DNA from: an uncultured Candidatus Saccharibacteria bacterium
Lineage (GTDB): Bacteria; Patescibacteriota; Minisyncoccia; Phycocordibacterales; Zambryskibacteraceae
Length of the DNA stretch: 64,000 bases
Assembly (NCBI GenBank): GCA_964355645.1
Contig: CAYHDI010000001.1
Location: 28,778-92,777, forward strand
Direction: 5' to 3'
Below are positions 1 to 58,864 of the stretch, in pieces; positions within the stretch are counted from its first letter, which is position 1; the number at the start of each line of letters is the position of its first letter. The notes beneath the pieces are model-generated. The model was not told the origin of the DNA, searched no databases, and saw nothing but the letters and a program-made list of their open reading frames with translations. A program made the translations under genes and the position numbers.

Positions 1-252
1 TTTCGTCCATGATTCGCTTCGACCGCCATCTCTCCGAAGAGTTAAGGTCGGTCGGCACCACAAGGAATCATTAGAAAGCAACGAAAGACTGGGAACGCGC
101 TTTGAAACCGCCAACCAGAAACTTACGTGAAAGGTCAAAAGAAGGAAGTCGGTTTCAGATATTTTTAATCAAGGGCACCTACCAGTCGTCAAAAAATTCC
201 AAGGGCCTAAGTTTAGAAGAATATTGACTTCGAGGAAATCCGGCTTTGTGCA

Positions 253-14045: not shown

Positions 14046-17000
14046 TTAAGAATTACGAATTGTGATATTCGTAGCCCTTTTAATCTCTTCATTATATTTC
14101 TTAAATATTTCTCTTTCTTCATCTGGCACAACATAAGACATCACATCTTTTGGTTTTAGATTCTTTTCTTTTCTCATTTCTTGAATCGAACGAATAATGT
14201 CTCGAACTTTGCCTTCCTCGGCAAGTTCTGGAGTGATATTTGAATCCACTAATACATCTTCAGAAACTACATATTTAATTTCTTTTACATTCACTTCATC
14301 TTTTATAAGTTCTTCATAAACATCTAATCGTTGCATTGATAAAGATTGAAGCGGTTGTCTTATTTTGATTCCGGCTTTTGCTCTTGCTTCTAAACCTCGA
14401 GAAACAATCTCTCTCGTTTTATTCATTCTTGAGATAATATCTCCATTTACATTTTTATCTTCTAAAGGCCACACATCCAAATGCACACTTTCCAAATCCT
14501 CTTCTGTTCGAAGTTTCTGATACAGTTCTTCTGCATAGAATGGAGTGAATGGTGCGAGGAGCTTAGAAATTGTTTTCAAGACAAAATACAAAGTCTGCTT
14601 CGCATCTTCGTCTCCTTCTTTGATTCGCTCGCGGGAACGACGAAGATACCAAGTCGAAAGGTCATCGACGAAATCTCGAATGGCACGGGTAGGTTCGAGA
14701 AGTTTGTAGTTATCAAGATTCTCTGTAGTTAACTTAATTAACTCATTCAATCTTATGAGAATCCATTGGTCGAGAATATTTCCACTCCCCGACACCCCAC
14801 CCTTGCCCTCCCCTTGATAAGGGGAGGGTTGGGAGGGGTCAGCATAAAGTTCATAGAAAGAATAAATGTTGTCGAGCATATTGAATACTCGTTTATTAAC
14901 TTCATCCACCGTCTTGTCATCAAAGTTTTTTGAATCCCCTGGTTGATTGATTGAGTACATCCAGAAACGCACCGCATCTGCGCCGTGTTTCTCCATAGAT
15001 TCAAACGGGTCTACCACATTACCCACTGACTTGCTCATTTTTTTGCCTTCCTTGTCCAAGAGTAAACCGAGGCAAATCACATTTTTGTAGGCTGCACCTC
15101 GATTCATGAGCACTCCTATCGCGTGCATGGTATAGAACCATCCACGAGTTTGATCAAGTCCTTCAGAGATAAAATCAGCTGGATAAAGAATTTTTGAGAA
15201 ATCCCCCGCTTTTTCTCGATTGTCAGAATCTTGAGAGAAAGGCATTGAACCGGAATCAAACCAAACATCCATCACTTCCTTCACTCGTTTGTATTCCTTC
15301 CCATTTTTCTCTAGGACAACTTCATCAATAAATGGTTTATGCAGATCAAGTTCAAAATTCGCGTTGTGCGGAAAAGGAACAAAATCTATTTCTTTTATTT
15401 CTGCATTCTTAGGATAATTTTCTGCTTCTATGTCATCCCCTATTTGTTCAGCAGTCAAACCTTTTGAACCAAGAATCATGTTCATGATTGGGGCACCATG
15501 ACTTATAAACAAAATATTTTTACCTGAATATTTGTTTTCATATTCTTCTAAGACTGTCATCACCCGAAACTTTGTATCGGTATAATTTTCCCCATCAGGG
15601 TTATTTTGTTTGTATCTATCTGAATAATGTTCATATCTAACCAAAAAATCATCCATTTTTTGGTTTTGATATTTATGGCCCGGATCAAATTCAATCAAAC
15701 GGTTATCTACGATGATTTCATTTTCGAAACCAATGGTTTCTTTAATAAGTTCTGAAGTTTCTTGTGCTCGCAGAATTGGAGAACGAATAATAATATCAAT
15801 TTTCTTATTCTTCAAACTTTCGGCCATTTTTTTCACTTGTTCTATACCCAACTCCGTCAAATGATTATTTGGATCTCCTTCTGAATCCCAAACCTTATTC
15901 ACATTATTCATGGCTTGACCATGTCGAACAGCGAAATATTTGTTGCCGGATTTTTTGGAATATTTCTTCAGGGTTTCAACCGAATCAACGACGATTCTAT
16001 CCTTCCCATCTATTGATGATTCTGCAAGCCAGATTGGAAGAGGTGTGCCCCAATATCTTTCTCGACTAATGGCCCAATCTTTCGCTTCTCGGAGCCATTC
16101 ACCAAAACGACCTTCCTTAATGTGAGAAGGTTCCCAATTTATCTTTTCATTTTCTTTGACCAATTTGTCTCGGAGCTCTGACATCCTGATGTACCAAGAA
16201 TCACGGGCATAATAAATCAATCGAGTCTTGCATCTCCAACAAAACGGATATGAGTGAGTATAATTTTCTTTCTCAAAAAGCAAGCTCCGATTTTGTAAAT
16301 CTTTCAAAATATCTACTGCCAGAGTTTCGTCCACCACCGAACGACCTTCGAGCCAATCCGTGCCTTTCATAAATGTTCCTTCCGGAGTGACTAGGTGAAC
16401 CTTTGGTAAGCCGACTTTCGTCCCAAGTTCGAAGTCATCTTGTCCATACATCACAGCTGTATGTACAATGCCCGTCCCATCTTCGGTGTTCACAAAATCC
16501 GCAGGGTAAACCCTGAAAGCCTTATCATCTTTTTTAATAAATGGATAAAGCGGTTCATATTCAAGGCCGACCAAATCCTGACCTTTAATTTTCTCAATAA
16601 TCTCGTATTCTCCTTCAACCACTTTCAATCTTGATTCAGCCAAAATTAAAATTTCATTTTCTTTTTTTATTTTTACATAATCAATTTTCTCCCCCACAGC
16701 AAGCCCGACGTTCCCCGGGAGAGTCCACGGTGTAGTGGTCCAAGCAAGCAAATATGTTCCCGGCTCATCGACTAGTTCAAACTTCGCTGTAATGGTTAAA
16801 TCCTTTACATCTTTGTACCCTTGAGCAAGTTCGTGGGTTGAGAGAGTGGTGCCACAACGCGGACACCAAGGTACAACTTTGTAATCTTTATAGAGTAAAT
16901 TCTGCTTTTCAACTTCGGAGAGAATCGACCAGATAGATTCCATAAACGGATTATGATAAGTCACATACGCGTTGTCATAATCCGCCCAATATCCCATACG

Positions 17001-17441: not shown

Positions 17442-19046
17442 TCACATCCTTTCTGGAGCGGGAATACCGAGGATAGTTAAGCCGTTTTTCATGACTGTAT
17501 TGAAAGCGCGAGTGAGAGCGATGAGGTATGAAGATTCTGGTTTGTCAGAAATGATTTGTTCGTTCGCATAAAGATTGTTGAAACTACCTGCAATTTCGGT
17601 TAAATATGTAGTAAGAAGATTTGGAGAATATTCTACACACGCTCGTTCAACAATTTCTGGGAATCTATAAAGAAGTTTTTCAACTACACGCACCTCACCT
17701 ACCGCAAGCGGTCCCCCCTCCCCTTGCCAAGGGGAGGGCTGGGAGAGGTGTACCTTAGCTTTCTCTAAAATTGAACATGTTCGCGCATAAGCATATTGAA
17801 GATAAACACCAGAATCACCTTCGATTGAAACCGATTTTTCTATATCAAAAATAATATCGTTGCCGACTGATTGACGAAGAATCATATATTTTATTGCTCC
17901 TATGGCTACTTGTTCATCGCCTTTTGTTTTTTCCTTCACACTCTCGATTAAAGTTTCTGCCTCTAATGCACCACCAGATCTAGAACTCATTTTGCCCGTA
18001 GGTAAGCGGAGCATACCGTGCCCAATATGTTTGGTAATCTCTGCGAGTTTGGGAGAAATAAGTTTAAGTGCTTGAAGCAACACTTTAAAATAAGCATTGA
18101 CCTCATTGCCCGTCACCACGATTGATTTGGTGTATGGATATTTCTCAAACTTTATTGGGGCTAAGCCAAGTTCTTTGGCTTCATAGGTTGGGATACCTTC
18201 TGAATTTATAAAGACACGAGTATGAAGCGCTTTATCATAATTTTCTGCATGAAAGACAACGGCTCCATTCTCCCCTGCTTCGAAAACTTTTCCCATATTT
18301 TCCTCTACGATTTTCTTGCCTCTTGGAGCTGATTCCGATTCAAAGAAAAAATAGTCAAAATGACTGCCTAATTTTTTATAAATAGAATCAAAATATTCTA
18401 AACTAGCTTTTCTACCTTCATCATAAAGTTTGTTTATAGATTCATCCGAACGATTATATATCTTTTTATTTATTTCTTGGATTTCTTTTCTGATATTCTC
18501 ATCTTCTTCAAATTTCTTATTCCCAAAAACATACGGCTCATTTGAGCCTTGCATTGTTCCCCAGACAGCTTTGGCTACATGAATTCCCACATCACCTTGG
18601 TAGCAAGCTTGTTTCACTTCGGCGCCGTTCCATTCAAAAATATTCGCGAGTGTTGAACCAACTACATTGGGCATAAGGTGACCAATATGGAATGACTTGA
18701 AAGGATTTGGGTCGGTGTGCTCCACCATCACCTTCTCTCCTTTTAAACTTTCATTCTTTCCAAATTCACTACCCTTCTCTACAATCTCTCCAATACTTCT
18801 CTTGAAAAATTCCTTGGATAAATAAAAATTTATGAAGCCGGACTTCAATTCTACTTTTTCAATCTCACTTGGGTGTCGGACAGCCAAGTAATCAACAATC
18901 TCCTGGGCCTTCTTGGAAACAATTCCAGCGTTGGTTGTATAGTCCCCGAAAGCAAGGTTCGTTGGGTGTTCTACTATGAATTTGGCGTTTTTAGTGCCAA
19001 CACTTTCTAAGGCCTTTTTGACTAGATTTTCTATAACTTTTTTCAT
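17442..19046 (-). CDS. argS: arginyl-tRNA synthetase with in-frame palindromic element (17714-17750)
   Basis: FHIGHL HIGH-motif, catalytic core and DALR anticodon-binding C-terminus. Confidence 0.9.
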   Translation of the reverse strand: MKKVIENLVKKALESVGTKNAKFIVEHPTNLAFGDYTTNAGIVSKKAQEIVDYLAVRHPSEIEKVELKSGFINFYLSKEFFKRSIGEIVEKGSEFGKNESLKGEKVMVEHTDPNPFKSFHIGHLMPNVVGSTLANIFEWNGAEVKQACYQGDVGIHVAKAVWGTMQGSNEPYVFGNKKFEEDENIRKEIQEINKKIYNRSDESINKLYDEGRKASLEYFDSIYKKLGSHFDYFFFESESAPRGKKIVEENMGKVFEAGENGAVVFHAENYDKALHTRVFINSEGIPTYEAKELGLAPIKFEKYPYTKSIVVTGNEVNAYFKVLLQALKLISPKLAEITKHIGHGMLRLPTGKMSSRSGGALEAETLIESVKEKTKGDEQVAIGAIKYMILRQSVGNDIIFDIEKSVSIEGDSGVYLQYAYARTCSILEKAKVHLSQPSPWQGEGGPLAVGEVRVVEKLLYRFPEIVERACVEYSPNLLTTYLTEIAGSFNNLYANEQIISDKPESSYLIALTRAFNTVMKNGLTILGIPAPERM

Positions 19047-21034: not shown

Positions 21035-21083
21035 TTAAAAAAATTGCAAACAAATAGGCCGGTCGCAGAGTCTGCGACCGGCC
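21035..21083 (-). terminator. intrinsic terminator (minus): 12-bp stem GGCCGGTCGCAG-AGTC-CTGCGACCGGCC plus T-run; second small hairpin+T-run at 20995-21015
   Basis: seen directly downstream of GC-rich ORF 21134-21670. Confidence 0.7.
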
Positions 21084-21900: not shown

Positions 21901-21978
21901 CGCCCCCTCTTAATGTAAGAGGGGGTTGGGGGTGTTATAACCCCTCCCTTACCCTCCCCTTATATTAAGTGGAGGGAA
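21901..21978. repeat. two tandem GC-rich palindromic elements (CCCCCTCTTAATGTAAGAGGGGG-TTGGGGGTGT and CCCTCCCC-TTATATTAA-GTGGAGGG) of same family as in-frame inserts in ileS/argS
   Basis: seen directly; shared CCCTCCCC...GGGGAGGG TTGGGRG core. Confidence 0.8.
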
Positions 21979-24505: not shown

Positions 24506-24580
24506 TGGGGTGACTACTGGGAGTTGAACCCAGACTGAAAGCTCCACAAGCTTTAGTGCTACCGCTACACCATAGCCACC
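24506..24580 (-). tRNA. tRNA-His (anticodon GTG) with G-1 and encoded CCA
   Basis: manual cloverleaf: acceptor GTGGCTA/TAGTCAC, anticodon loop TTGTGGA, C73, extra 5' G. Confidence 0.85.
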
Positions 24581-25415: not shown

Positions 25416-25455
25416 ACCACCTAATTATACACCCTGTGCGCGGGACAGGAATTGA

Positions 25456-25537
25456 ACCTGCATGCCTTTCGGCGCTACCACCTCAAGGTAGTGCGTCTAC
25501 CAATTTCGCCACCCGCGCATCGCGTTCACAATAACAG
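25456..25537 (-). tRNA. tRNA-Leu (anticodon GAG), type II with long variable arm
   Basis: manual fold: anticodon stem CTACC/GGTAG, loop TTGAGGT. Confidence 0.8.
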
Positions 25538-26063: not shown

Positions 26064-27137
26064 TTATGGCAAATCCCTAACAAATTTTTTATATCTATGA
26101 ATCAAACTTCGCATGCTTTGTGATTTTGTATGAGATAAATGGCCTAAATATGAAGAAAAGGATTGATTGAATTCTCCTTTTGTTGATTTTCCATTTTGTA
26201 AGTTATAAGTCATTTTTCCTAACTTTTTTTGTATTCTTTTTTTAGTTTTAGTTCTAGGCACAACGTGATAAGGCATTGCAACGGCTCCTAAAAAATCTAC
26301 ACCTTGGAGAAACGAACGGATACTAACCTTACTTGGATGTAATTCGAGCTTTAAATGTTCTATTAAAAACTTTTGTATAGGATAGATAAATAGATTCAAT
26401 TTTTCACGACTCGAATCAAGGATAACAAAATCATCGCAGTATCTAATGTAATTTTTACTTATTTTGGTTTTAATAAACCAATCAAACTTGTTCATGTATA
26501 CATTAGCGAAAAGCTGACTGGTAACATTACCGAGAGGTAAACCCTTCCCTGATATTTTATGAAAGGTATCAATTATCTTCGCCAATAAATCTAAGGTTTT
26601 CTTGCATTCAATTTTTTCTTTTAGGAGATTATTTAAAATATTGTGGTTAATTGAATCAAAAAACTTTCGTATATCACACTTGAGCGCATAGGTCTGACCT
26701 GTGTAGTTTCGACTGATTTTTCGAGACATTTTGACAAGTCTATCTATACCTGCATGAGTACCCTTGCCCGTTCTACTAGCATACGAATCAAAAATAAAAT
26801 CATTATCAAAAATTGGATACAAAACCTGATGGATGGCTTGATACAAAACCCTATCTCGAACTGAGGCTTTATGAATCTTTCTTGGTTTTGGATCACGAAT
26901 AGAAAAAGATGTATATCCATCACATGTCCATTGTCCTGAAATTAGTTCTTTTTGAAGCCCAAAAATGTTATTCTCAAGATTGAGAGAAAAATTTACAATA
27001 TCAAGTTTTTTGTTTTTGTTTTTTTTGAATTCTCGCCAAGCGAAAAATAAATTCTCGAGCGAAATAATTTTATGGAAAATACTTCTATCAAGACCCCCCC
27101 CCCCAACGGTATTTTGGTGGCTCCGATTATCGTTCAT
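26064..27137 (-). CDS. DGR-type reverse transcriptase (first ATG 27137; ORF track start 27143 is TTG)
   Basis: RT domains with LPLGNVTSQ (DGR-specific I/LGxxxSQ motif 4) and YCDDFVIL (YxDD); no maturase/endonuclease domains; N-terminal GGGG encoded by (G)11 tract. Confidence 0.88.
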   Translation of the reverse strand: MNDNRSHQNTVGGGGLDRSIFHKIISLENLFFAWREFKKNKNKKLDIVNFSLNLENNIFGLQKELISGQWTCDGYTSFSIRDPKPRKIHKASVRDRVLYQAIHQVLYPIFDNDFIFDSYASRTGKGTHAGIDRLVKMSRKISRNYTGQTYALKCDIRKFFDSINHNILNNLLKEKIECKKTLDLLAKIIDTFHKISGKGLPLGNVTSQLFANVYMNKFDWFIKTKISKNYIRYCDDFVILDSSREKLNLFIYPIQKFLIEHLKLELHPSKVSIRSFLQGVDFLGAVAMPYHVVPRTKTKKRIQKKLGKMTYNLQNGKSTKGEFNQSFSSYLGHLSHTKSQSMRSLIHRYKKFVRDLP

Positions 27138-27461
27138 GTGCAAAAATTATATCAGGAATTATACATAATCGCCGAACAAATTCCGAAGCGAGATAAGCTT
27201 GGCCTACATGCCGAGATTGAGAAAACTTGTATCAAAACACTCTCACTCTGTATTCAGGCATCACTGGCTTCTAAAGGTGACAAATTTTCTTTAATTCGTG
27301 ATATAAGAGTATTAATAGAAACAATGAAATACCTTATTCGCGTTTCTCATGAACTTTTAATCATTAATCAGAAAAAATATATTTCTTTGGAATCAAAACT
27401 GCAGGAAATTTCTAAGATGGCTAACGGGTGGGAGAGATATGCAACAAACAATCCCGCTTAA
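27072..27461 (+). CDS. avd: Avd-like accessory variability determinant (four-helix-bundle, TIGR02436-like), antisense to RT; possibly starts at GTG 27112
   Basis: IPKRDKLGL...KY...L.EI.KM.NGW pattern of Avd/four-helix-bundle family; (C)11 tract 27094-27104 in N-terminal codons. Confidence 0.7.
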   Translation: MENTSIKTPPPNGILVAPIIVHVQKLYQELYIIAEQIPKRDKLGLHAEIEKTCIKTLSLCIQASLASKGDKFSLIRDIRVLIETMKYLIRVSHELLIINQKKYISLESKLQEISKMANGWERYATNNPA

Positions 27462-27482
27462 GCGGGATTGTTGTAAAACTTC

Positions 27483-27590
27483 GGGAACCGAGGTTCGAAT
27501 TGCGATTCGTCGGAGCGTACCAGTTCACGTTCGACTTGTCGTCGTTCCAGTTCGCGTTCGGCACGTTGCCATTCGAATTGCGAGAACCTC
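27483..27590 (-). repeat. DGR1 template repeat (TR)
   Basis: 108-nt match to VR 27833-27940; ~17 of 18 differences at TR adenines (minus strand); TR ORF is Asn-rich. Confidence 0.85.
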
Positions 27591-27763
27591 CGTTGCTCTC
27601 CTCCGTCCGTATCACCGAAAGACGTTTGCCTTTCTGCGTTTATGAATTTCTCGCGGTACTCTCGAGCGTTGTGTTGAAGAAAGCAAGCAGTTTTGTTTTA
27701 TTGCGATAAATTGTTATTCAAAAGAATCAATTAAACAATCGCGTAAATATTATATATGAAAAT

Positions 27764-27790
27764 CCGCCAAGCACACGAGGTGCTTGGCGG
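27764..27790 (-). promoter_or_regulatory. GC hairpin CCGCCAAGCAC-ACGAG-GTGCTTGGCGG ~30 nt 3' of VR1, preceded by conserved TTATATGAAAATC; DGR homing-associated stem-loop candidate
   Basis: perfect 11-bp stem; equivalent motif+hairpin at DGR2. Confidence 0.6.
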
Positions 27791-27816
27791 AGGGTTAAAG
27801 AGAAAAGATGCAAGGT

Positions 27817-28524
27817 TTAGACACAAACCCTGCGGGAACCGAGGTGCGAATCGCGACTCGTCGGAGCGTACCAGCCCACGCCCGACTTGCCGCCGCCCCC
27901 GTACGCGCCCGGCACGTCGCCACTCGAATCGCGAGAACCTGAATTGAGTGTCCAGGTCTGGCGGTCGGGATGGTGGCCGTGCTTCAGGAAATACATCGCC
28001 GAGAACAGCGCGTACTCGAGATGAGTCGATGTCTTGATGCCCATCTCGGCGATTTGGTTCGCCGATTTGTTCATCAGATTCTCGTCCGGGGTTTCCGAGT
28101 CGAGCATCAGCACGACGTACGAATCATTCCCGGGATTGCGCTCGTCCTTGTGGGTCGGAATGGCAAGATCGAGGGAGTCGCTCGTGTACTTCCAACACGG
28201 GAAGAGTTTCTTCCGAGCTTGGAACACGTCCTCCTTCGGTTCGCCATTCGTCCACTCGACGAGCTCGCGCATCATGGGTACCGCGAGGTACTGCCGAGCA
28301 TCCGGGGCCCGCGGGATGAAAAGGTTCGAGAAGTCCAGGGCCTTGCCGAAGAGCTTTTCGTACAACACCGACATGAACGAAACGTCGATGTTGCTGTCAA
28401 CCACTTGCGTGGCGACAGCAACCTTCTTCACCAGAGCGTCCCGAAGACGCCGAGCGAGAAGCGAAGGATTGCTGATGTAGCGCTGTTGCTCCTTCGTTGT
28501 GAGAAGTGGCAACTGCGCGAGCAC
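27817..28524 (-). CDS. DGR1 target (variable) protein; VR at 27833-27940 encodes C-terminal CLec-like NSGSRDSSGDVPGAYGGGGKSGVGWYAPTSRDSHLGSRRV
   Basis: VR/TR pairing; GC-rich gene; no signal peptide evident. Confidence 0.8.
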   Translation of the reverse strand: MLAQLPLLTTKEQQRYISNPSLLARRLRDALVKKVAVATQVVDSNIDVSFMSVLYEKLFGKALDFSNLFIPRAPDARQYLAVPMMRELVEWTNGEPKEDVFQARKKLFPCWKYTSDSLDLAIPTHKDERNPGNDSYVVLMLDSETPDENLMNKSANQIAEMGIKTSTHLEYALFSAMYFLKHGHHPDRQTWTLNSGSRDSSGDVPGAYGGGGKSGVGWYAPTSRDSHLGSRRVCV

Positions 28525-28717
28525 AGCACCCCCCGAAGGTGAGCGTCTGCTTGTGGAGCTCGGGCGTGAATGGAGCTTTCCCAGCGCGTGGCATGGTTTC
28601 TTCTCCTCGTTGTAGATGTTCAGACAGAAGCTCAGGTGCTTCTTTGTCTAAGTCTGATTATATCACACTCTATTATAAAAAGCAAGTTTCCAAATGGTTC
28701 ACCACCTTGGAACCAAT

Positions 28718-29449
28718 TTATGGCTTAAAATCTATCTTTTTAAAGGCTTCTAGGAAATCCTCTGGGAAATTGGCCAACACTCGGTGTTGACCACCTTTAG
28801 TATCTACGAACACTACCTCTCGAGCATGAAGGGCAAGACGCTTGAATCCGAGCATCATGGGTTTAGTCGAGGCATAGAGTTTGTCTCCTATCACTGGTCG
28901 TTGAAGAGATTGAAAATGCACCCGAATTTGATGCGTGCGGCCAGTCTTCGGCTTGGCTTCCACAAGAGTTATCCCTTCTGCCCGTTTGAGCACTCTAAAG
29001 TATGTGACCGCATCTCTCATCTCCCCCGTGGCTCCTCGACCAGCAGAATATTTGCGAAAATCGCTCGGGCTCTTGCCTATCGGCATGCTGAGTGTCCCAT
29101 GGTTTTCTTTCATGTTGCCGTACACAAATGCATAGTAAGTTTTTTGAATTTTTCTATCAAGAAATTGCTTTTTTAGACACTCGAAACCTTTTTGAGTTTT
29201 CGCCAGGAGAAGAACACCAGAAGTATCTCGGTCCAGACGATGCACAATCCCACTTCGATCAATAATCTCCCCACCCTCAAGTCGAATCATTTCTCCCACA
29301 TTCTTCGCTTCAGGATATTTTTCTACGAGCCATTCCGAAACAGATGGCTCCTTGGTCCGTCCATCACTATGCACCACAATCCCCGCCGGTTTGTTCAGTG
29401 CGAGAATATCTTCGTCTTCATAAATAATGTTGGGTGTGAGATCGGTCAT
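28718..29449 (-). CDS. RluA-family pseudouridine synthase; contains in-frame palindrome at 28771-28790
   Basis: HRLDRDTSGVLLLAK catalytic motif. Confidence 0.88.
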   Translation of the reverse strand: MTDLTPNIIYEDEDILALNKPAGIVVHSDGRTKEPSVSEWLVEKYPEAKNVGEMIRLEGGEIIDRSGIVHRLDRDTSGVLLLAKTQKGFECLKKQFLDRKIQKTYYAFVYGNMKENHGTLSMPIGKSPSDFRKYSAGRGATGEMRDAVTYFRVLKRAEGITLVEAKPKTGRTHQIRVHFQSLQRPVIGDKLYASTKPMMLGFKRLALHAREVVFVDTKGGQHRVLANFPEDFLEAFKKIDFKP

Positions 29450-30117
29450 TTGTTTCCAAGAATAATATCACCAATTCTTTCAATCCATCCTTTGATGGTT
29501 AAAAACAACTTGGTGTCCTGTATTGAAATATCAATCGTACCGAAGGGTAAGGTTTTCCTTTTTTGTGAGCTTGCACTACTTGGTTTTATATAAGTTTTAT
29601 AAAATTGTTTCTTTGGTATACCAGATATTTGTGACCAATACTTTTCAATTTTGTTTATATCAGCACCTTCAAAAGTGTGTATATGGGCATGAAATTTCTC
29701 TTCAGAGACCCGACATATCTCCCTAAAAAATCTCATCATTACTTTTATAATTCTTGGATCACTATTCGCTAAGCTAACAGACCAATTGCCCGCTTTTCTT
29801 CCCTCTCCCCAATATATCATTGCTCCTACAAGTTTGAGTTCTTTTTTTGATATAGTCAAAAAATCCTCTTTGGCTAAATTGATTATCACTTGTCTTTTTT
29901 TGTTTTCATTAATGACCCGACTGGTTCGGCGTCGTTCTATAGATTCCATACTTCTTCCTCTTTCAGAAATTGTGTTCCTTTGAATGTCTGTGAGCAAAAT
30001 ATCCCGCGTCCAAAAACTAACACTGGCTTTTGAATAACCGGTCTCCTTTACAATTTGATTCATTGATTTACCTTGTTTACGCAAGGCTCTCGCTCGCTCC
30101 CTTTCTTTTATTTTCAT
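29446..30117 (-). CDS. HTH-domain protein with possible degenerate LAGLIDADG-like core, adjacent to tRNA cluster
   Basis: N-terminal HTH (ALRKQGKSMNQIVKETGYSKASV); LVGAMIYWGEGRK weakly LAGLIDADG-like; layout similar to 47124-47966. Confidence 0.35.
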   Translation of the reverse strand: MKIKERERARALRKQGKSMNQIVKETGYSKASVSFWTRDILLTDIQRNTISERGRSMESIERRRTSRVINENKKRQVIINLAKEDFLTISKKELKLVGAMIYWGEGRKAGNWSVSLANSDPRIIKVMMRFFREICRVSEEKFHAHIHTFEGADINKIEKYWSQISGIPKKQFYKTYIKPSSASSQKRKTLPFGTIDISIQDTKLFLTIKGWIERIGDIILGNK

Positions 30118-30197: not shown

Positions 30198-30273
30198 GCG
30201 GGATTAGCTCAGTTGGTAGAGCAGTCGCTTTACACGCGGATGGTCACAGGTTCGAGTCCTGTATCCCGCACCA
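30198..30273 (+). tRNA. tRNA-Val (anticodon TAC), CCA encoded
   Basis: manual cloverleaf; acceptor GCGGGAT/ATCCCGC; loop TTTACAC. Confidence 0.85.
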
Positions 30274-30281
30274 AACCAAGT

Positions 30282-30365
30282 GCCGAGGTGGTGAAATCGG
30301 TAGACACGCAGCGTTCAGAACGCTGTCACCGCAAGGTGGTAGGAGTTCAAGTCTCCTCCTCGGCA
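30282..30365 (+). tRNA. tRNA-Leu (anticodon CAG), long variable arm
   Basis: acceptor GCCGAGG/CCTCGGC; anticodon loop TTCAGAA. Confidence 0.8.
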
Positions 30366-30390
30366 CAAAAATGTGTTAATTTGAATGCAC

Positions 30391-30462
30391 GTCCTCGTAG
30401 CTTAATGGATAAAGCAGTGCTCTTCTAAGGCATTGATGCAGGTTCGATTCCTGCCGAGGACA
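30391..30462 (+). tRNA. tRNA-Arg (anticodon TCT)
   Basis: acceptor GTCCTCG/CGAGGAC; loop CTTCTAA; T-loop TTCGATT. Confidence 0.8.
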
Positions 30463-30575: not shown

Positions 30576-30914
30576 ATGTGCTCACCAATGACAGCATGGC
30601 ATTACGCCATTATCCGAATGGCATTCGCTGTTGCGGTTAACAGGGTGTTCCCGAACATCAGACTGGATGAGACAAAAATTGGGGTCAAATGGAGTGAGCG
30701 TGGAGACGTCAGCTTCCAAGTTAGCGCCGACCACACTGATGGTCGTACTTTTCAAGGAGAAGTTCGCCCCCAATGGATACAAGATTACAGTCGTTGGTGT
30801 CTTGTTGAACTGAGAGGGCATCAAATACCTGTAACAGGCAGAATTCAAGGTGAGAAGCCTGGTGAAGTATGGTATGTCGGATATGAATATTCCAAAATGA
30901 CCCAAAGCGCCTAG
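30576..30914 (+). CDS. hypothetical protein (112 aa), moderately GC-rich
   Basis: ORF followed by terminator AAAGCGCCTAGGCGCTTTTT (30904-30930). Confidence 0.4.
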   Translation: MCSPMTAWHYAIIRMAFAVAVNRVFPNIRLDETKIGVKWSERGDVSFQVSADHTDGRTFQGEVRPQWIQDYSRWCLVELRGHQIPVTGRIQGEKPGEVWYVGYEYSKMTQSA

Positions 30915-30940
30915 GCGCTTTTTCTTTTTTTTAAAAATAA

Positions 30941-32565: not shown

Positions 32566-32656
32566 ACAAGGAGGAGTCGCATAGAGGCCTAGTGCGGTAG
32601 TCTTGAAAACTACTATACCGAAAGGTATCGTGAGTTCGAATCTCACCTCCTCCGCC
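32566..32656 (+). tRNA. tRNA-Ser (anticodon TGA), long variable arm, CCA encoded
   Basis: acceptor GGAGGAG/CTCCTCC; loop CTTGAAA. Confidence 0.85.
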
Positions 32657-41938: not shown

Positions 41939-42010
41939 GCTCCCATCGTTCAATGGATAGGACATAACTTTGCGGAAGTTAAAATGTAGGTTCGATTCCT
42001 ACTGGGAGCA
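41939..42010 (+). tRNA. tRNA-Arg (anticodon GCG, G37)
   Basis: acceptor GCTCCCA/TGGGAGC; anticodon stem TAACT/AGTTA; loop TTGCGGA. Confidence 0.75.
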
Positions 42011-47063: not shown

Positions 47064-47136
47064 GCCCCCATAGCTCAATGGTAGAGCATTCGCCTTTTAA
47101 GCGATCGATCATGGTCCGATTCCATGTGGGGGCACA
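47064..47136 (+). tRNA. tRNA-Lys (anticodon TTT), atypical T-loop
   Basis: acceptor GCCCCCA/TGGGGGC; anticodon loop CTTTTAA; D-arm GCTCAATGGTAGAGC. Confidence 0.7.
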
Positions 47137-50855: not shown

Positions 50856-51279
50856 ATTCAATACTCCTCGCATTATCTCCCAAGTGCCCAAAGAAAATTT
50901 TCTTCGCCTCGTTTGGAATAATTCCTTGCACTTTTTCTGGCCATTCAATGAGAATTAAATTCTCTGGTTCTTGAATTATTTCCTCCCAGCCCAAATGTAG
51001 AAGTTCTGAATCTTTTTCCAACCTATACGCATCAATATGAATCAAGTTTTTGAAACCTTGAAAATCAATCGGGTAAATTTTCTCTATTACAAATGTCGGG
51101 CTTTGCATTGTTTCCTTCACTCCTAAAAAACTTCCAACCGCTTGAGAAAACGCCGTCTTGCCCGAACCGAGCTCTCCAGCAAGCGCAACTACGACGGCTC
51201 GGTCCCCAGATTTTAATCCTTCTATAAACCCCCGTGCCACTTCGCCCGTCTCCTCCAGACTCTTAGAAATATGCTTCAT
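50845..51279 (-). CDS. tsaE: tRNA threonylcarbamoyladenosine biosynthesis ATPase TsaE
   Basis: GELGSGKT Walker A. Confidence 0.85.
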   Translation of the reverse strand: MKHISKSLEETGEVARGFIEGLKSGDRAVVVALAGELGSGKTAFSQAVGSFLGVKETMQSPTFVIEKIYPIDFQGFKNLIHIDAYRLEKDSELLHLGWEEIIQEPENLILIEWPEKVQGIIPNEAKKIFFGHLGDNARSIEYED

Positions 51280-51698
51280 TTCTCTATTGTACCATTTTGA
51301 GCTTCTGGTGCTCTAAGGATTGTTTGAGTAAGTTTATTTGTATTCCCGTGTTTCAACAGCCCTAAATAGGACTGGGTGGTTTCTTGGTTATTTTGGCTAT
51401 CTTTGAGTCTTTTAAACATTCTATTTTTTGTACTAGTTCTCAAAATTCTATAATCAGAAAAATGTACCCACCCCAGAAAATCAATACCTGAAACTAGGGT
51501 TTTAATGGAAACTTTGTTTGGATGTAATTCAAGTTTAAGAATCTGGTTTAGATAACATACGATATATCGCATGTTAAGCATAAGATAATTTTTGTTTTGA
51601 AAGAACTTTCGCACATCACATTTCAATACCCAACATTGTTTTGTGTTGTTCTTGGAAACTTTGTATGAAAATTCTCTAAACCTGTTCATATGATACAT
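51276..51698 (-). pseudogene. degenerate DGR reverse transcriptase remnant (140 aa; lacks domains 1-2 and motifs 4/5 incl. YxDD)
   Basis: N-terminus ~RT1 FAWREFKK fused to ALKCDIRKFF region; C-terminus ~RT1 thumb (LELHPNKVSI...GIDFLGW). Confidence 0.7.
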
Positions 51699-52076
51699 AA
51701 TATCGCGACCCCCCCCCCCGCAAAAGCACCCGAGGTGCTTTTTAAGGGAAGAGCAACTTATAAATATTGGCTTCAGTTATATAAACAATTTCGGAAACCA
51801 GAACGTTTTGGACTCGGTGAAAAAATAGATACACTGTTTCTAGAGGTATTAGAACTTATCTATACAGCAATCTATTTAGAAACATCAGCGAAAATACCAA
51901 AACTTGAGCTCGCTATTCTTAAATTAGACAGAATAAAATTGTTCTCTGAAATTGCTTGGGAAAATAAACTGATACTCACAGATAAATACACTCTTTTTCT
52001 AACACAACTTCAAGAAATCGGCAGGCAACTTTCCGGTTGGAAGAAAAGTTTGATAACAAAAACTTCCACCCTATAA
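51690..52076 (+). CDS. avd: Avd-like four-helix-bundle protein (paralog of 27072-27461), (C)11 at 51709-51719
   Basis: RKPERFGL...KY...L.EI....SGW pattern; ATG overlaps RT-remnant ATG in CATATGATACATATG. Confidence 0.7.
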   Translation: MIHNIATPPPAKAPEVLFKGRATYKYWLQLYKQFRKPERFGLGEKIDTLFLEVLELIYTAIYLETSAKIPKLELAILKLDRIKLFSEIAWENKLILTDKYTLFLTQLQEIGRQLSGWKKSLITKTSTL

Positions 52077-52100
52077 AAAGCGGAAGAAAATATATAGTTT

Positions 52101-52210
52101 CGGAAAAGTACCACGTTCTCGGCATTCCAACGATTCGAGTTCTCGAGCTTGTTGACGTTCACGTTCCAGCCATTCGAGTTCCGGTTCACGTTGAGAAAGA
52201 ACACTGACGC
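52101..52210 (-). repeat. DGR2 template repeat (TR)
   Basis: 110-nt match to VR 52491-52600 with ~26 differences, all but one at TR adenines (minus strand); Asn-rich TR ORF. Confidence 0.85.
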
Positions 52211-52412
52211 TTTTGTACAACAAGCCATCTATGCCACTACCCCTTGATCACTCTCGAGGTTGTATCGTATTCGGAATCTCTATTCCTTAGTTTGTTATAC
52301 CAACTGTTTATTTTTTTGTGAGTCGTGACTTACGACTCGAGCCCACCACACTAAGCGTAACAGCGAAGTGTGCCAGTGTAGCCTGATTTTATTATATGAA
52401 AATCGGGTGACT

Positions 52413-52438
52413 CTTGCGAGTCACCCGAGTAGTTTTGT
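52413..52438 (-). promoter_or_regulatory. GC hairpin TCGGGTGACTC-TTGC-GAGTCACCCGA preceded by TTATATGAAAATC, ~45 nt 3' of target2 stop
   Basis: perfect 11-bp stem; same arrangement as DGR1. Confidence 0.6.
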
Positions 52439-52483
52439 TTCTGGCCCAGATCAGAAGTGACCAAGGGTCAAAGAGACAGAGGT

Positions 52484-53143
52484 TCAGTTGCGGAAAAGTA
52501 CCACGCCCCCGGCACGCCAACGATTCGAGAACTCGAGCCTGAGGACGAACACGCGCCAGCCAAGCGAGCGCAGGTACACGTCGAGAAAGAACACCGACGC
52601 TCCATCGAAGATGGGAACCAAGTTCGCCCAACCGTCCGTGCGGAGGTGGAAGGGGTTCTCACCCCGGTCACAAGCAACGAGCATGTCGTCGACCTGCTTG
52701 GGAGAGAAACACTTGCCACACTCGACGAGCGTCCCCGCGACAAGATCGAGATTCTTCTCGATGCCGAGGTGCTCGACGGACATCTCAATGAAGTTCATCT
52801 CTGCACCGAGCTGGTAACTCGACGCACGACCTTCGATCATCGCCGGCACGGACTTCCGAAGCCAGTTGTCTAGATCTCCATCACGGTAAACGATGTGCTT
52901 ACCGCGGAAGAGATCCTTGGTCTTGCACTCGCCGACTGCTTGTACGGTGATGTTCGTGGCGAGAGCGATGAGGCTGGCAACGACTGCCTTGAAGCGGTTC
53001 TTGATCGCCTCACCCCAAAGTCTGATGGCTTCGACGGTATTCTGAATCGCCCACTGTGCATCCTCATTCGAGAACTCACGGATGGACGACTGGTGTTCGA
53101 CCACGAGGCCAGCGAGCTTGTACTGCTGTTGTTCGGTTGCCAT
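52484..53143 (-). CDS. DGR2 target protein; VR 52491-52600 at C-terminus (...NRWRAGGVVLFRN)
   Basis: VR/TR pairing; GC-rich. Confidence 0.8.
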   Translation of the reverse strand: MATEQQQYKLAGLVVEHQSSIREFSNEDAQWAIQNTVEAIRLWGEAIKNRFKAVVASLIALATNITVQAVGECKTKDLFRGKHIVYRDGDLDNWLRKSVPAMIEGRASSYQLGAEMNFIEMSVEHLGIEKNLDLVAGTLVECGKCFSPKQVDDMLVACDRGENPFHLRTDGWANLVPIFDGASVFFLDVYLRSLGWRVFVLRLEFSNRWRAGGVVLFRN

Positions 53144-53358
53144 TGTAGGCGTCTCCGTTTTTACAGCATGAATGCCAGAGGACTACCGGATTGGTAGTCA
53201 TAGCCAGAAAATGCCTAGAATTAAGCACCTTTTGGCTATGACCACCTGCAAGTTAAATTTGAAGGAACTTACTGCCCTCTATTATACACATAATTAGTAT
53301 CCTGTCAAGTTTAGAAAAATAAGCTTAAATTTAGAGCTCTTTAGAGTATAATTAAAAA

Positions 53359-58734: not shown

Positions 58735-58864
58735 GAAAAAATCCGTCACTAACAAGTGACGGATTTTTGCATTTTCGCACGAAAGAACAACTGTGAAGGT
58801 TCGAAGTAACGGGTCAACTCCTCCAAAGATCTAGGGGCTTACACTCCAACTAACGCCCCCTCTT

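Follow-up and report, generated by a model that had tools for sequence, protein, structure and literature searches.

Two DGR cassettes among housekeeping genes

The window, by which we mean the whole 64-kb stretch of DNA that was analysed, carries two DGR cassettes whose target genes, variable repeats (VRs) and TRs all lie on the minus strand. The target gene of the first, DGR1 (27817..28524, −), encodes 235 residues, in a translation from the list of open reading frames that ends with GVGWYAPTSRDSHLGSRRVCV before the stop codon TAA (27819-27817), and carries VR1 (27830..27940, −) in frame at its 3′ end, i.e., at the C-terminus of the protein. VR1 is a 111-nt match to TR1 with 19 mismatches, 18 of which (95%) fall on TR adenines in the minus-strand reading. 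The cassette further comprises a reverse transcriptase, RT1 (26064..27143, −; Pfam RVT_1, 1.5e-24), whose start codon is uncertain, and the accessory gene Avd1 (27072..27461, +; Pfam bAvd, 2.8e-15), which runs on the strand opposite to the TR and the RT. In DGR2, the target gene (52484..53143, −; 219 residues; stop codon TGA at 52486-52484) ends in VR2 (52486..52601, −), a 116-nt match to TR2 with 23 mismatches, 22 of them (96%) at TR adenines; Avd2 (51690..52076, +; Pfam bAvd, 2.4e-10) is again found on the opposite strand, and the RT is represented by a remnant of 140 residues (51276..51698, −), which aligns to residues 133-171 and 216-350 of RT1 and is without the N-terminal part and the stretch between these two blocks. 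Given this concentration of mismatches at TR adenines, both TR/VR pairs are genuine, and the combination of an RT, an Avd and a TR/VR pair with adenine-biased mismatches, the VR lying at the 3′ end of a gene, identifies both cassettes as DGRs, DGR2 with an RT remnant only.

Read on the minus strand, each cassette begins with the target gene and its VR, followed by the stop codon, a gap of 25-55 nt, a hairpin, TTTTCA(TA), TATAAT, a further ∼160-180 nt and the TR, after which come another T-tailed hairpin, avd in the opposite orientation and the RT. This gene order, target-TR-(avd reversed)-RT, appears to be the 'B3' architecture of Wu et al. (2017; PMC5758913), which according to these authors accounts for 90% of CPR DGRs. 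Relatives of RT1 are 43-56% identical to it, the named ones coming mostly from Patescibacteria/CPR MAGs, and the closest found in a search for close relatives with stepwise compensatory changes reach 56% identity in genomes and 54% in metagenomes. Within the window, Avd1 and Avd2 are 24% identical and the two targets are unrelated to each other; to judge by these comparisons, the two cassettes are old and highly divergent. Of the TR2 adenines, 22 are still mismatched in VR2, although the RT of DGR2 is a 140-residue remnant, and DGR2 is either decaying or dependent on RT1 in trans, despite an identity of only 24% between Avd2 and Avd1.

Both DGRs are surrounded by housekeeping genes (L19, pseudouridine synthase, TsaE, PolA) and are therefore chromosomal and not obviously phage-borne. 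The window also encodes eight tRNA genes, three of which are clustered at 30198-30462 (+), the others lying at 24509-24579 (−), 25437-25518 (−), 32570-32654, 41939-42010 and 47064-47134 (+). A public contig (Logan ERR3654040_182595), hereafter L083, corresponds to window positions 26975-29961, is 100% identical over the DGR1 region and has an identical Avd. The gene caller applied to L083 chose the plus-strand ORF 27970-28542 and not the VR-bearing target on the minus strand, so that the target protein is probably absent from protein databases. Elsewhere in the window, the GC-rich palindrome CCCTCCCCTTGnnAAGGGGAGGG occurs twice inside large minus-strand ORFs, and a similar one, CCCCCTCTTAATGTAAGAGGGGG, occurs once with similar G-rich flanks (14806-14828, 17716-17738 and 21903-21925); these palindromes may be a small repeated element.

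Hairpin, T-tract and AT-rich motif downstream of the targets

An earlier note on this DNA had pointed to an AT-rich motif and an 11-bp GC hairpin downstream of both VRs. At DGR1 this holds exactly as described: the plus strand reads ATTATATATGAAAATC and then CCGCCAAGCAC-ACGAG-GTGCTTGGCGG at 27764-27790, and a flanking T·A pair extends the stem to 12 bp (27763-27791). On the strand of the target gene, the hairpin is TCCGCCAAGCAC-CTCGT-GTGCTTGGCGGA (27763..27791, −; 12 bp, 8 of them G-C), the proposed intrinsic terminator stem of this gene, and directly 3′ of it follows the T-tract TTTTCATA (27755..27762, −), which would be the U-tract of the terminator and is included in the terminator-like listing. 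At DGR2 the sequence reported before, ATTATATGAAAATC with TCGGGTGACTC-TTGC-GAGTCACCCGA, is present, yet it is located at 52403-52428, 10 nt lower than the 52413-52438 given for it; its minus-strand form is TCGGGTGACTC-GCAA-GAGTCACCCGA (52403..52428, −; 11 bp, 7 G-C), with the T-tract TTTTCA at 52397..52402 (−). The hairpin starts 25 nt after the stop codon in DGR1 (stop at 27817-27819) and 55 nt after it in DGR2 (stop at 52484-52486), the latter in place of the 45 nt claimed, and is separated from the end of TR/VR homology by 38 and 57 nt, respectively.

The two hairpins have predicted RNA folding energies of −22.2 (DGR1) and −21.0 kcal/mol (DGR2), and structure prediction, which had been proposed as a check, shows them to fold far better than shuffled sequences, with z-scores of −6.1 and −5.1 as RNA and of about −8 for both as DNA. 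A terminator scan ranks both among the strongest candidates of the window, with a U-tract that is short by E. coli standards at both sites (4 T, or 5 T of 8 in TTTTCATA). Perfect stems of at least 11 bp with a loop of 3-8 nt are found at 6 distinct places of the window, compared with ∼0.17 expected from Markov simulations. Roughly seven T-tailed hairpins are present in all, of which four belong to the two DGR cassettes; the other three or so, at 21057-21083, 30904-30921 and 58737-58768, are without the motif, which speaks against motif and hairpin together being widespread at non-DGR gene ends in these 64 kb, as would be expected of a generic terminator.

That the AT-rich motif is shared is correct, yet on the functional strand it does not precede the hairpin, as had been thought, and instead lies 3′ of it, where the hairpin is followed by TTTTCATATATAAT in one cassette and by TTTTCATATAAT in the other; the coding strand thus reads TTTT-CA(TA)-TATAAT. 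Allowing for one mismatch, we find the 13-mer TTATATGAAAATC nowhere in the 64 kb but at these two sites, at equivalent positions, against an expectation of 0.35, and with at most two mismatches it is not enriched in the window (6 occurrences vs 4.9 expected). Its composition suggests two consensus signals packed together, the U-tract (TTTT) and, after CA, TATAA(T), which probably explains why two very divergent cassettes share it. When the two intergenic regions were aligned globally with MAFFT, the hairpins came out misaligned, and the alignment was set aside.

Hairpins, repeat tracts and TR RNAs in related loci

We compared 58 related Patescibacteria DGR loci with TR/VR pairs, setting the 130 nt after the VR-bearing gene against those that follow each of the other ORFs with 100 or more residues. 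In a permissive scan (hairpin with dG ≤ −12 and a T-tail within 130 nt of the stop), such a structure follows 49 of the 58 targets (84%) and 99 of the 566 other genes (17.5%; p 4e-25). A strict scan for near-perfect stems with a T-tail, in which G·T pairs and one internal mismatch were tolerated, finds it after 31/58 targets and 23/566 other genes, or 11/304 when the latter have free downstream space, and in an independent metagenome set it follows 24 of 33 targets (73%) and 34 of 268 other genes (13%). The hairpin is near-universal in this DGR clade and is not common at other gene ends, in line with the earlier proposal of a conserved cis element; the element is associated with DGRs, and its stem changes in sequence while it stays paired. 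DGR targets are followed by terminator-like hairpins at least about 5 times as often as are the other genes of these genomes, an enrichment that a purely generic terminator would not lead one to expect, unless selection acts specially on the insulation of the TR RNA, and that a homing signal would show as well. The median distance between stop and hairpin in the relatives is 45 nt. In three of them (L018, L023 and L043), an identical junction, TTTCAT(A/G)TATA(A/C)T, follows an unrelated stem, and in two others (L115 and L140) the hairpin-TTTT-TATAAT grammar is also found at sites downstream of the RT, apparently outside the cassette; this grammar is generic.

The stems in the window are both fully Watson-Crick and carry no strand information themselves. 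In the related loci, a strand-symmetric search, which superseded a test biased by hairpin finding and an outward-extension test with too few events, gave a better fold on the sense strand in 22 loci and a worse one in 3, with 39 G·U pairs in sense vs 6 in antisense; controls were symmetric (45 vs 42). This bias points to a structure that is selected in RNA (or in the sense single strand) and not to a symmetrical cruciform. Stems in the relatives have 8-21 pairs, with a median of 12 and a mode of 11-12 (22 of 50 loci), so that the 'same length' ascribed to the two stems of the window, which have 12 and 11 bp and not 11 bp each, is the modal length of the group. Loops measure 3-9 nt and include UUCG, CUUG and GNRA tetraloops, and no conservation of stem or loop sequence was found across the related loci.

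The corresponding element of BPP-1 has a stem of 7-10 bp, a 4-nt GRNA loop and a distance of 4-34 bp to the VR (Guo et al., 2011; PMC3240598), and myDGR searches for hairpins of this type (PMC6602519). The hairpins of the window depart from this description in stem length, in the 4-nt GRNA sense loop and in distance, and none of 50 related hairpins combines all of its features: a GRNA loop is present in 3/50 relatives and in 0/25 of the second (metagenome) set, and the distance from VR to hairpin is 24-115 nt, falling within 4-34 in 11/50. Loops, stem lengths, distances and the T-tract all differ, and the analogy to the homing stem-loop of BPP-1 that the earlier note had drawn breaks down on these points.

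The stretch from the stop codon to the hairpin is, on the sense strand, poor in A (18% vs 33%) and rich in T and C, and is made of degenerate yCTTKKwyC units; of 111 CTT-to-CTT distances, 74 are 7 or 8 nt, where shuffled sequences give ∼5, as are 31 of 53 in the second (metagenome) set. Within 135 nt downstream of VRs, clusters of at least 3 CTT units are concentrated ∼60-fold. Such a tract follows the VR in 35 of 61 related loci (at the same position in L002-L163) and is present in both cassettes of the window, at 27792..27816 (−) in DGR1, where ACCTTGCATCTTTTCTCTTTAACCC has CTT units 7-8 nt apart in an A-poor pyrimidine tract, and at 52429..52483 (−) in DGR2, where the A-poor tract includes CTCTTTGACCCTTGGTCACTTCTGATC. 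The repeats do not act as back-up stop codons in all frames, as 81 stop triplets compare with 78 ± 6 in shuffles, and the tract does not pair in a locus-specific manner with the 5′ part of its cognate TR RNA, cognate combinations being no better than non-cognate ones (median rank of the cognate 18.5 of 50 for the sense tract and 23 of 50 for the antisense). CTT clusters at window positions 148-219, considered as a possible third DGR target, lie in an apparent coding region and do not mark such a target.

Downstream of the T-tract, the relatives have a TATAAT-like hexamer followed by conserved sequence that begins with GGCTGTTAAATTG or GGTAGTAGGC. TAnnnT is found 5-8 nt upstream of the conserved RNA 5′ domain in 39 of the 41 loci with a placeable start, compared with 6.7% for random anchors in the same sequences; its spacing from the RNA helix is 6 nt in 29 loci and 7 nt in 8, and the position counts of the hexamer over the 41 loci are T40 A41 T25 A34 A28 T40. 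In the helix itself, 11 of 14 predicted pairs covary (e.g., GGC/GCC, GAC/GTC and GCGAT/ATCGC), and the GGC…GCC of most relatives corresponds in DGR1 to GCGAT…ATCGC. Taken together, hexamer and covarying helix have the look of a −10 box and a transcription start. The proposed −10 hexamer of the TR1-RNA promoter, TATAAT at 27749..27754 (−), lies 6 nt upstream of the conserved 5′ stem, with a predicted start at G 27742; that of TR2, TATAAT at 52391..52396 (−), has its predicted start at G 52383 (GGCT…). The stem-loop domain at the predicted TR-RNA 5′ end (27703-27742, −, in the window) is conserved in an alignment of 17 loci (A4), and a second class of TR-RNA loci starts with GGTAGTAGGCGAATA…CCGAATCCAGTATCC.

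No −35 hexamer is found 16-18 bp upstream of TATAAT in either cassette (CGTGTG in DGR1 and TCGCAA in DGR2, with at most 3/6 matches), because this region falls inside the variable hairpin, and a two-hexamer promoter scan lists neither of the two TR-RNA TATAAT sites. The TTGACC units of the repeat tract are −35-like, yet at the wrong distance for such a role. Canonical promoters do occur in this organism, as shown by a perfect sigma70 consensus, TTGACA-16-TATAAT, at 53281-53308 (−), which precedes the target gene of DGR2 by ∼140 nt.

The predicted stand-alone TR1 RNA of ∼300 nt (27440..27742, −) would comprise the 5′ stem-loop domain (27742-27703, GCGAT...ATCGC), TR1 (27589-27479) and a 3′ hairpin (27472-27447) followed by TTGTTG, and the predicted TR2 RNA of ∼330 nt (52056..52383, −) would include TR2 (52211-52096) and a 3′ hairpin (52086-52063) followed by TTTTTGTT; the ends of both are predicted ones. 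A hairpin with a T-tail follows the TR in 54 of 61 loci, and in the window it lies 7-9 nt after each TR (27447-27472 and 52063-52086, −), oriented for the TR RNA and not for the convergent avd gene, which ends inside or beside it. In the 60 nt upstream of the TR, compared in all loci, the motif YGGTG-N(4-6)-RGAYGG (e.g., TCGGTGATACGGACGG and GGTAGTGGCATAGATGG) is conserved in both RNA classes at 20-35 nt before the TR; in the window it is located at ∼27600-27625 (−) and ∼52225-52250 (−), and it is a candidate recognition site of the RT/Avd complex. In a search of Rfam no family matched, and there were only sub-threshold hits to the terminator ends of sRNAs.

Interpretation and comparison with known systems

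We regard it as probable, at roughly 0.65, that the element is the intrinsic terminator of the target gene adjoining the promoter of a stand-alone TR RNA of ∼300 nt, that is, the junction of two transcription units in a 'B3-type' DGR cassette of Patescibacteria (CPR). The GC-rich hairpin and the T-tract would act as a Rho-independent terminator in the nascent target mRNA, and TATAAT, 6-8 nt beyond, would be the −10 element of a sigma70-type promoter without a recognisable −35. This promoter would fire a stand-alone template RNA of ∼300 nt from a start 6-7 nt downstream (about 27742 to 27440 in DGR1 and 52383 to 52056 in DGR2), made up of a structured 5′ domain, the YGGTG…GGAYGG motif, the TR and its own terminator of hairpin and T-tail. 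The terminator between the two units would keep transcription of the target gene from running on into the TR RNA, the 5′-most nucleotides of which are already paired, and its high frequency upstream of TR RNAs is plausibly due to the 5′ end of this RNA having to stay defined for such pairing. Four features of an intrinsic terminator are present, namely a stable GC-rich stem-loop, a T-tract 3′ of it in sense, a position after the stop codon in the same orientation and, in the relatives, strand-specific pairing. It is from this anatomy, together with its strong link to DGR targets, a fold that is biased to the sense strand and a −10 consensus at a fixed spacing from a covarying RNA 5′ end, that we infer actual termination, the transcription start and the rationale of insulation.

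The hairpin may instead, mainly or additionally, be the CPR counterpart of the DGR hairpin/cruciform of BPP-1 and Legionella, needed by the retrohoming machinery for target recognition, with the terminator look secondary or co-opted; we consider this possible, if rather unlikely. It would accommodate the strong and specific association with VR 3′ ends (84% vs 17.5% and 73% vs 13%), the free stem sequence with its pairing kept, as in BPP-1, where structure matters and not the sequence of the stem and longer stems are partly tolerated (PMC3240598), and the additional, DGR-specific CTT-repeat tract between VR and hairpin; moreover, a hairpin after the VR is experimentally required for retrohoming of BPP-1 (PMC3240598), which would make a second role at the DNA level conceivable. 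However, the features that are critical in BPP-1 fail here, with GRNA loops in 3/50 and 0/25 loci, distances mostly outside 4-34 nt and longer stems, and a sense-strand T-tail, which BPP-1 is without, is the rule. The G·U pairs turn many of the stems into poor cruciforms, 14-27% of apparently active relatives are without the hairpin, and the same type of hairpin with T-tail accompanies the TR, which is no homing target; in DGRs at large, such repeats are present in only 34% (Wu et al., 2017; PMC5758913). More doubtful still is a composite target-recognition module in the VR 3′ flank of CPR DGRs, distinct from the GRNA-loop cruciform of BPP-1, in which an A-poor array of CTT units 7-8 nt apart and a sense-strand hairpin with T-tail would couple cDNA retrohoming to termination or pausing on the target gene, e.g., via an exposed non-template strand or a repeat-bound protein.

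A hairpin that is not a terminator, and that stabilises the 3′ end of the target mRNA, marks a site of its processing or serves as a protein-binding operator for the TR promoter, seems improbable to us. The short U-tract would fit such a role, as would the location of the hairpin, whose 3′ end is 17-24 nt away from the predicted start in 21 of 36 loci, so that it takes up the position of a −35 and could influence the promoter; over all, however, the distance from hairpin to start varies between 15 and 76 nt, the T-tail is nearly always present, and stem and loop have none of the sequence conservation that a specific binding protein would need. Very little credit can be given to coincidence, or to the recent duplication of one cassette, as the source of the likeness between the two sites. 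The window holds only two copies, and at two mismatches the 13-mer occurs about as often as expected (6 vs 4.9), yet at one mismatch both occurrences (vs 0.35) stand at equivalent positions, the arrangement recurs in dozens of loci, and cassettes so divergent show no recent copy: with Avds only 24% identical and unrelated targets, consensus signals account better for the 13-mer in both than a recent duplication would.

Under the preferred reading, a terminator abutting the TR-RNA promoter, the layout of hairpin, T-tract and −10 box recurs in candidate-phyla retroelements and is a known kind of signal, not a new one; hairpins after VRs have been described since 2011, and a terminator and a promoter delimiting a target gene and a template RNA are ordinary. 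The contribution lies in a clean map of transcription for the DGR layout that is commonest in CPR, with a predicted self-contained template RNA of ∼300 nt. This map provides coordinates at which RNA ends can be tested, and a rational starting point for the reconstitution of DGRs from uncultivated organisms. A near-universal post-VR terminator also calls for caution against labelling every hairpin after a VR a 'homing cruciform'. The more interesting by-products are the structured, stand-alone TR RNA that is predicted and the CTT-repeat tract, the sole feature that could hint at clade-specific target recognition.

With Rho-independent terminators, the hairpins of the window share a GC-rich stem of 11-12 bp, a loop of 4-5 nt, a T-tract on the transcribed strand and a position tens of nt past the stop codon, and those of the relatives share stable tetraloops and G·U pairs favouring the sense strand; they differ in the short U-tract (4 T), in being far commoner after DGR targets and in the A-poor CTT-repeat tract in front. 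The proposed promoter resembles sigma70-type −10 elements in its perfect TATAAT in both cassettes, and in the almost invariant T1, A2 and T6 of the relatives, 6-7 nt from a conserved start, and is unlike such promoters in having no −35 at 16-18 bp, a T-tract and hairpin upstream and a TGn extension in some relatives only. The closest parallel for the RNA is in Trichodesmium, whose TR is transcribed from a start site of its own as an abundant ncRNA (Pfreundt et al., 2014; PMC4143802): the template is a discrete small RNA from its own promoter there, of 265 nt, and would be one here, with ∼300 nt predicted, although start and size were measured in Trichodesmium and are predicted here from the −10 box, the conserved 5′ helix and the 3′ terminator, and the gene order there differs from the B3 order target-TR-(avd reversed)-RT.

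Like the hairpin/cruciform of BPP-1 and Legionella (Guo et al., 2011; PMC3240598), the element is a GC-rich inverted repeat 3′ of a VR, free in sequence, kept in pairing and associated with DGR targets. In the phage genome, however, the BPP-1 hairpin reads TAG-CGGGGCC-GAAA-GGCCCCG and then CCAAGG, an 8-bp stem with a GAAA loop that starts at the stop codon beside the VR end and has no T-tail, whereas the stems of the window, of 11-12 bp, have loops CTCGT and GCAA, are separated from the VR end by 38 and 57 nt and are followed by a T-tail, and the fold of their relatives is sense-strand specific. Group IIC introns, whose targeting of terminators Guo et al. already set in parallel with DGRs (PMC3240598), are likewise retroelements related to the DGR RT that use intrinsic-terminator hairpins as landmarks, with the difference that here nothing is inserted downstream of the hairpin and diversification takes place upstream. 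Wu et al. (2017; PMC5758913) weighed a terminator function for DGR hairpins as well and found terminators in only a minority of all DGRs; in the DGR clade studied here, unlike in that whole, terminators are the rule.
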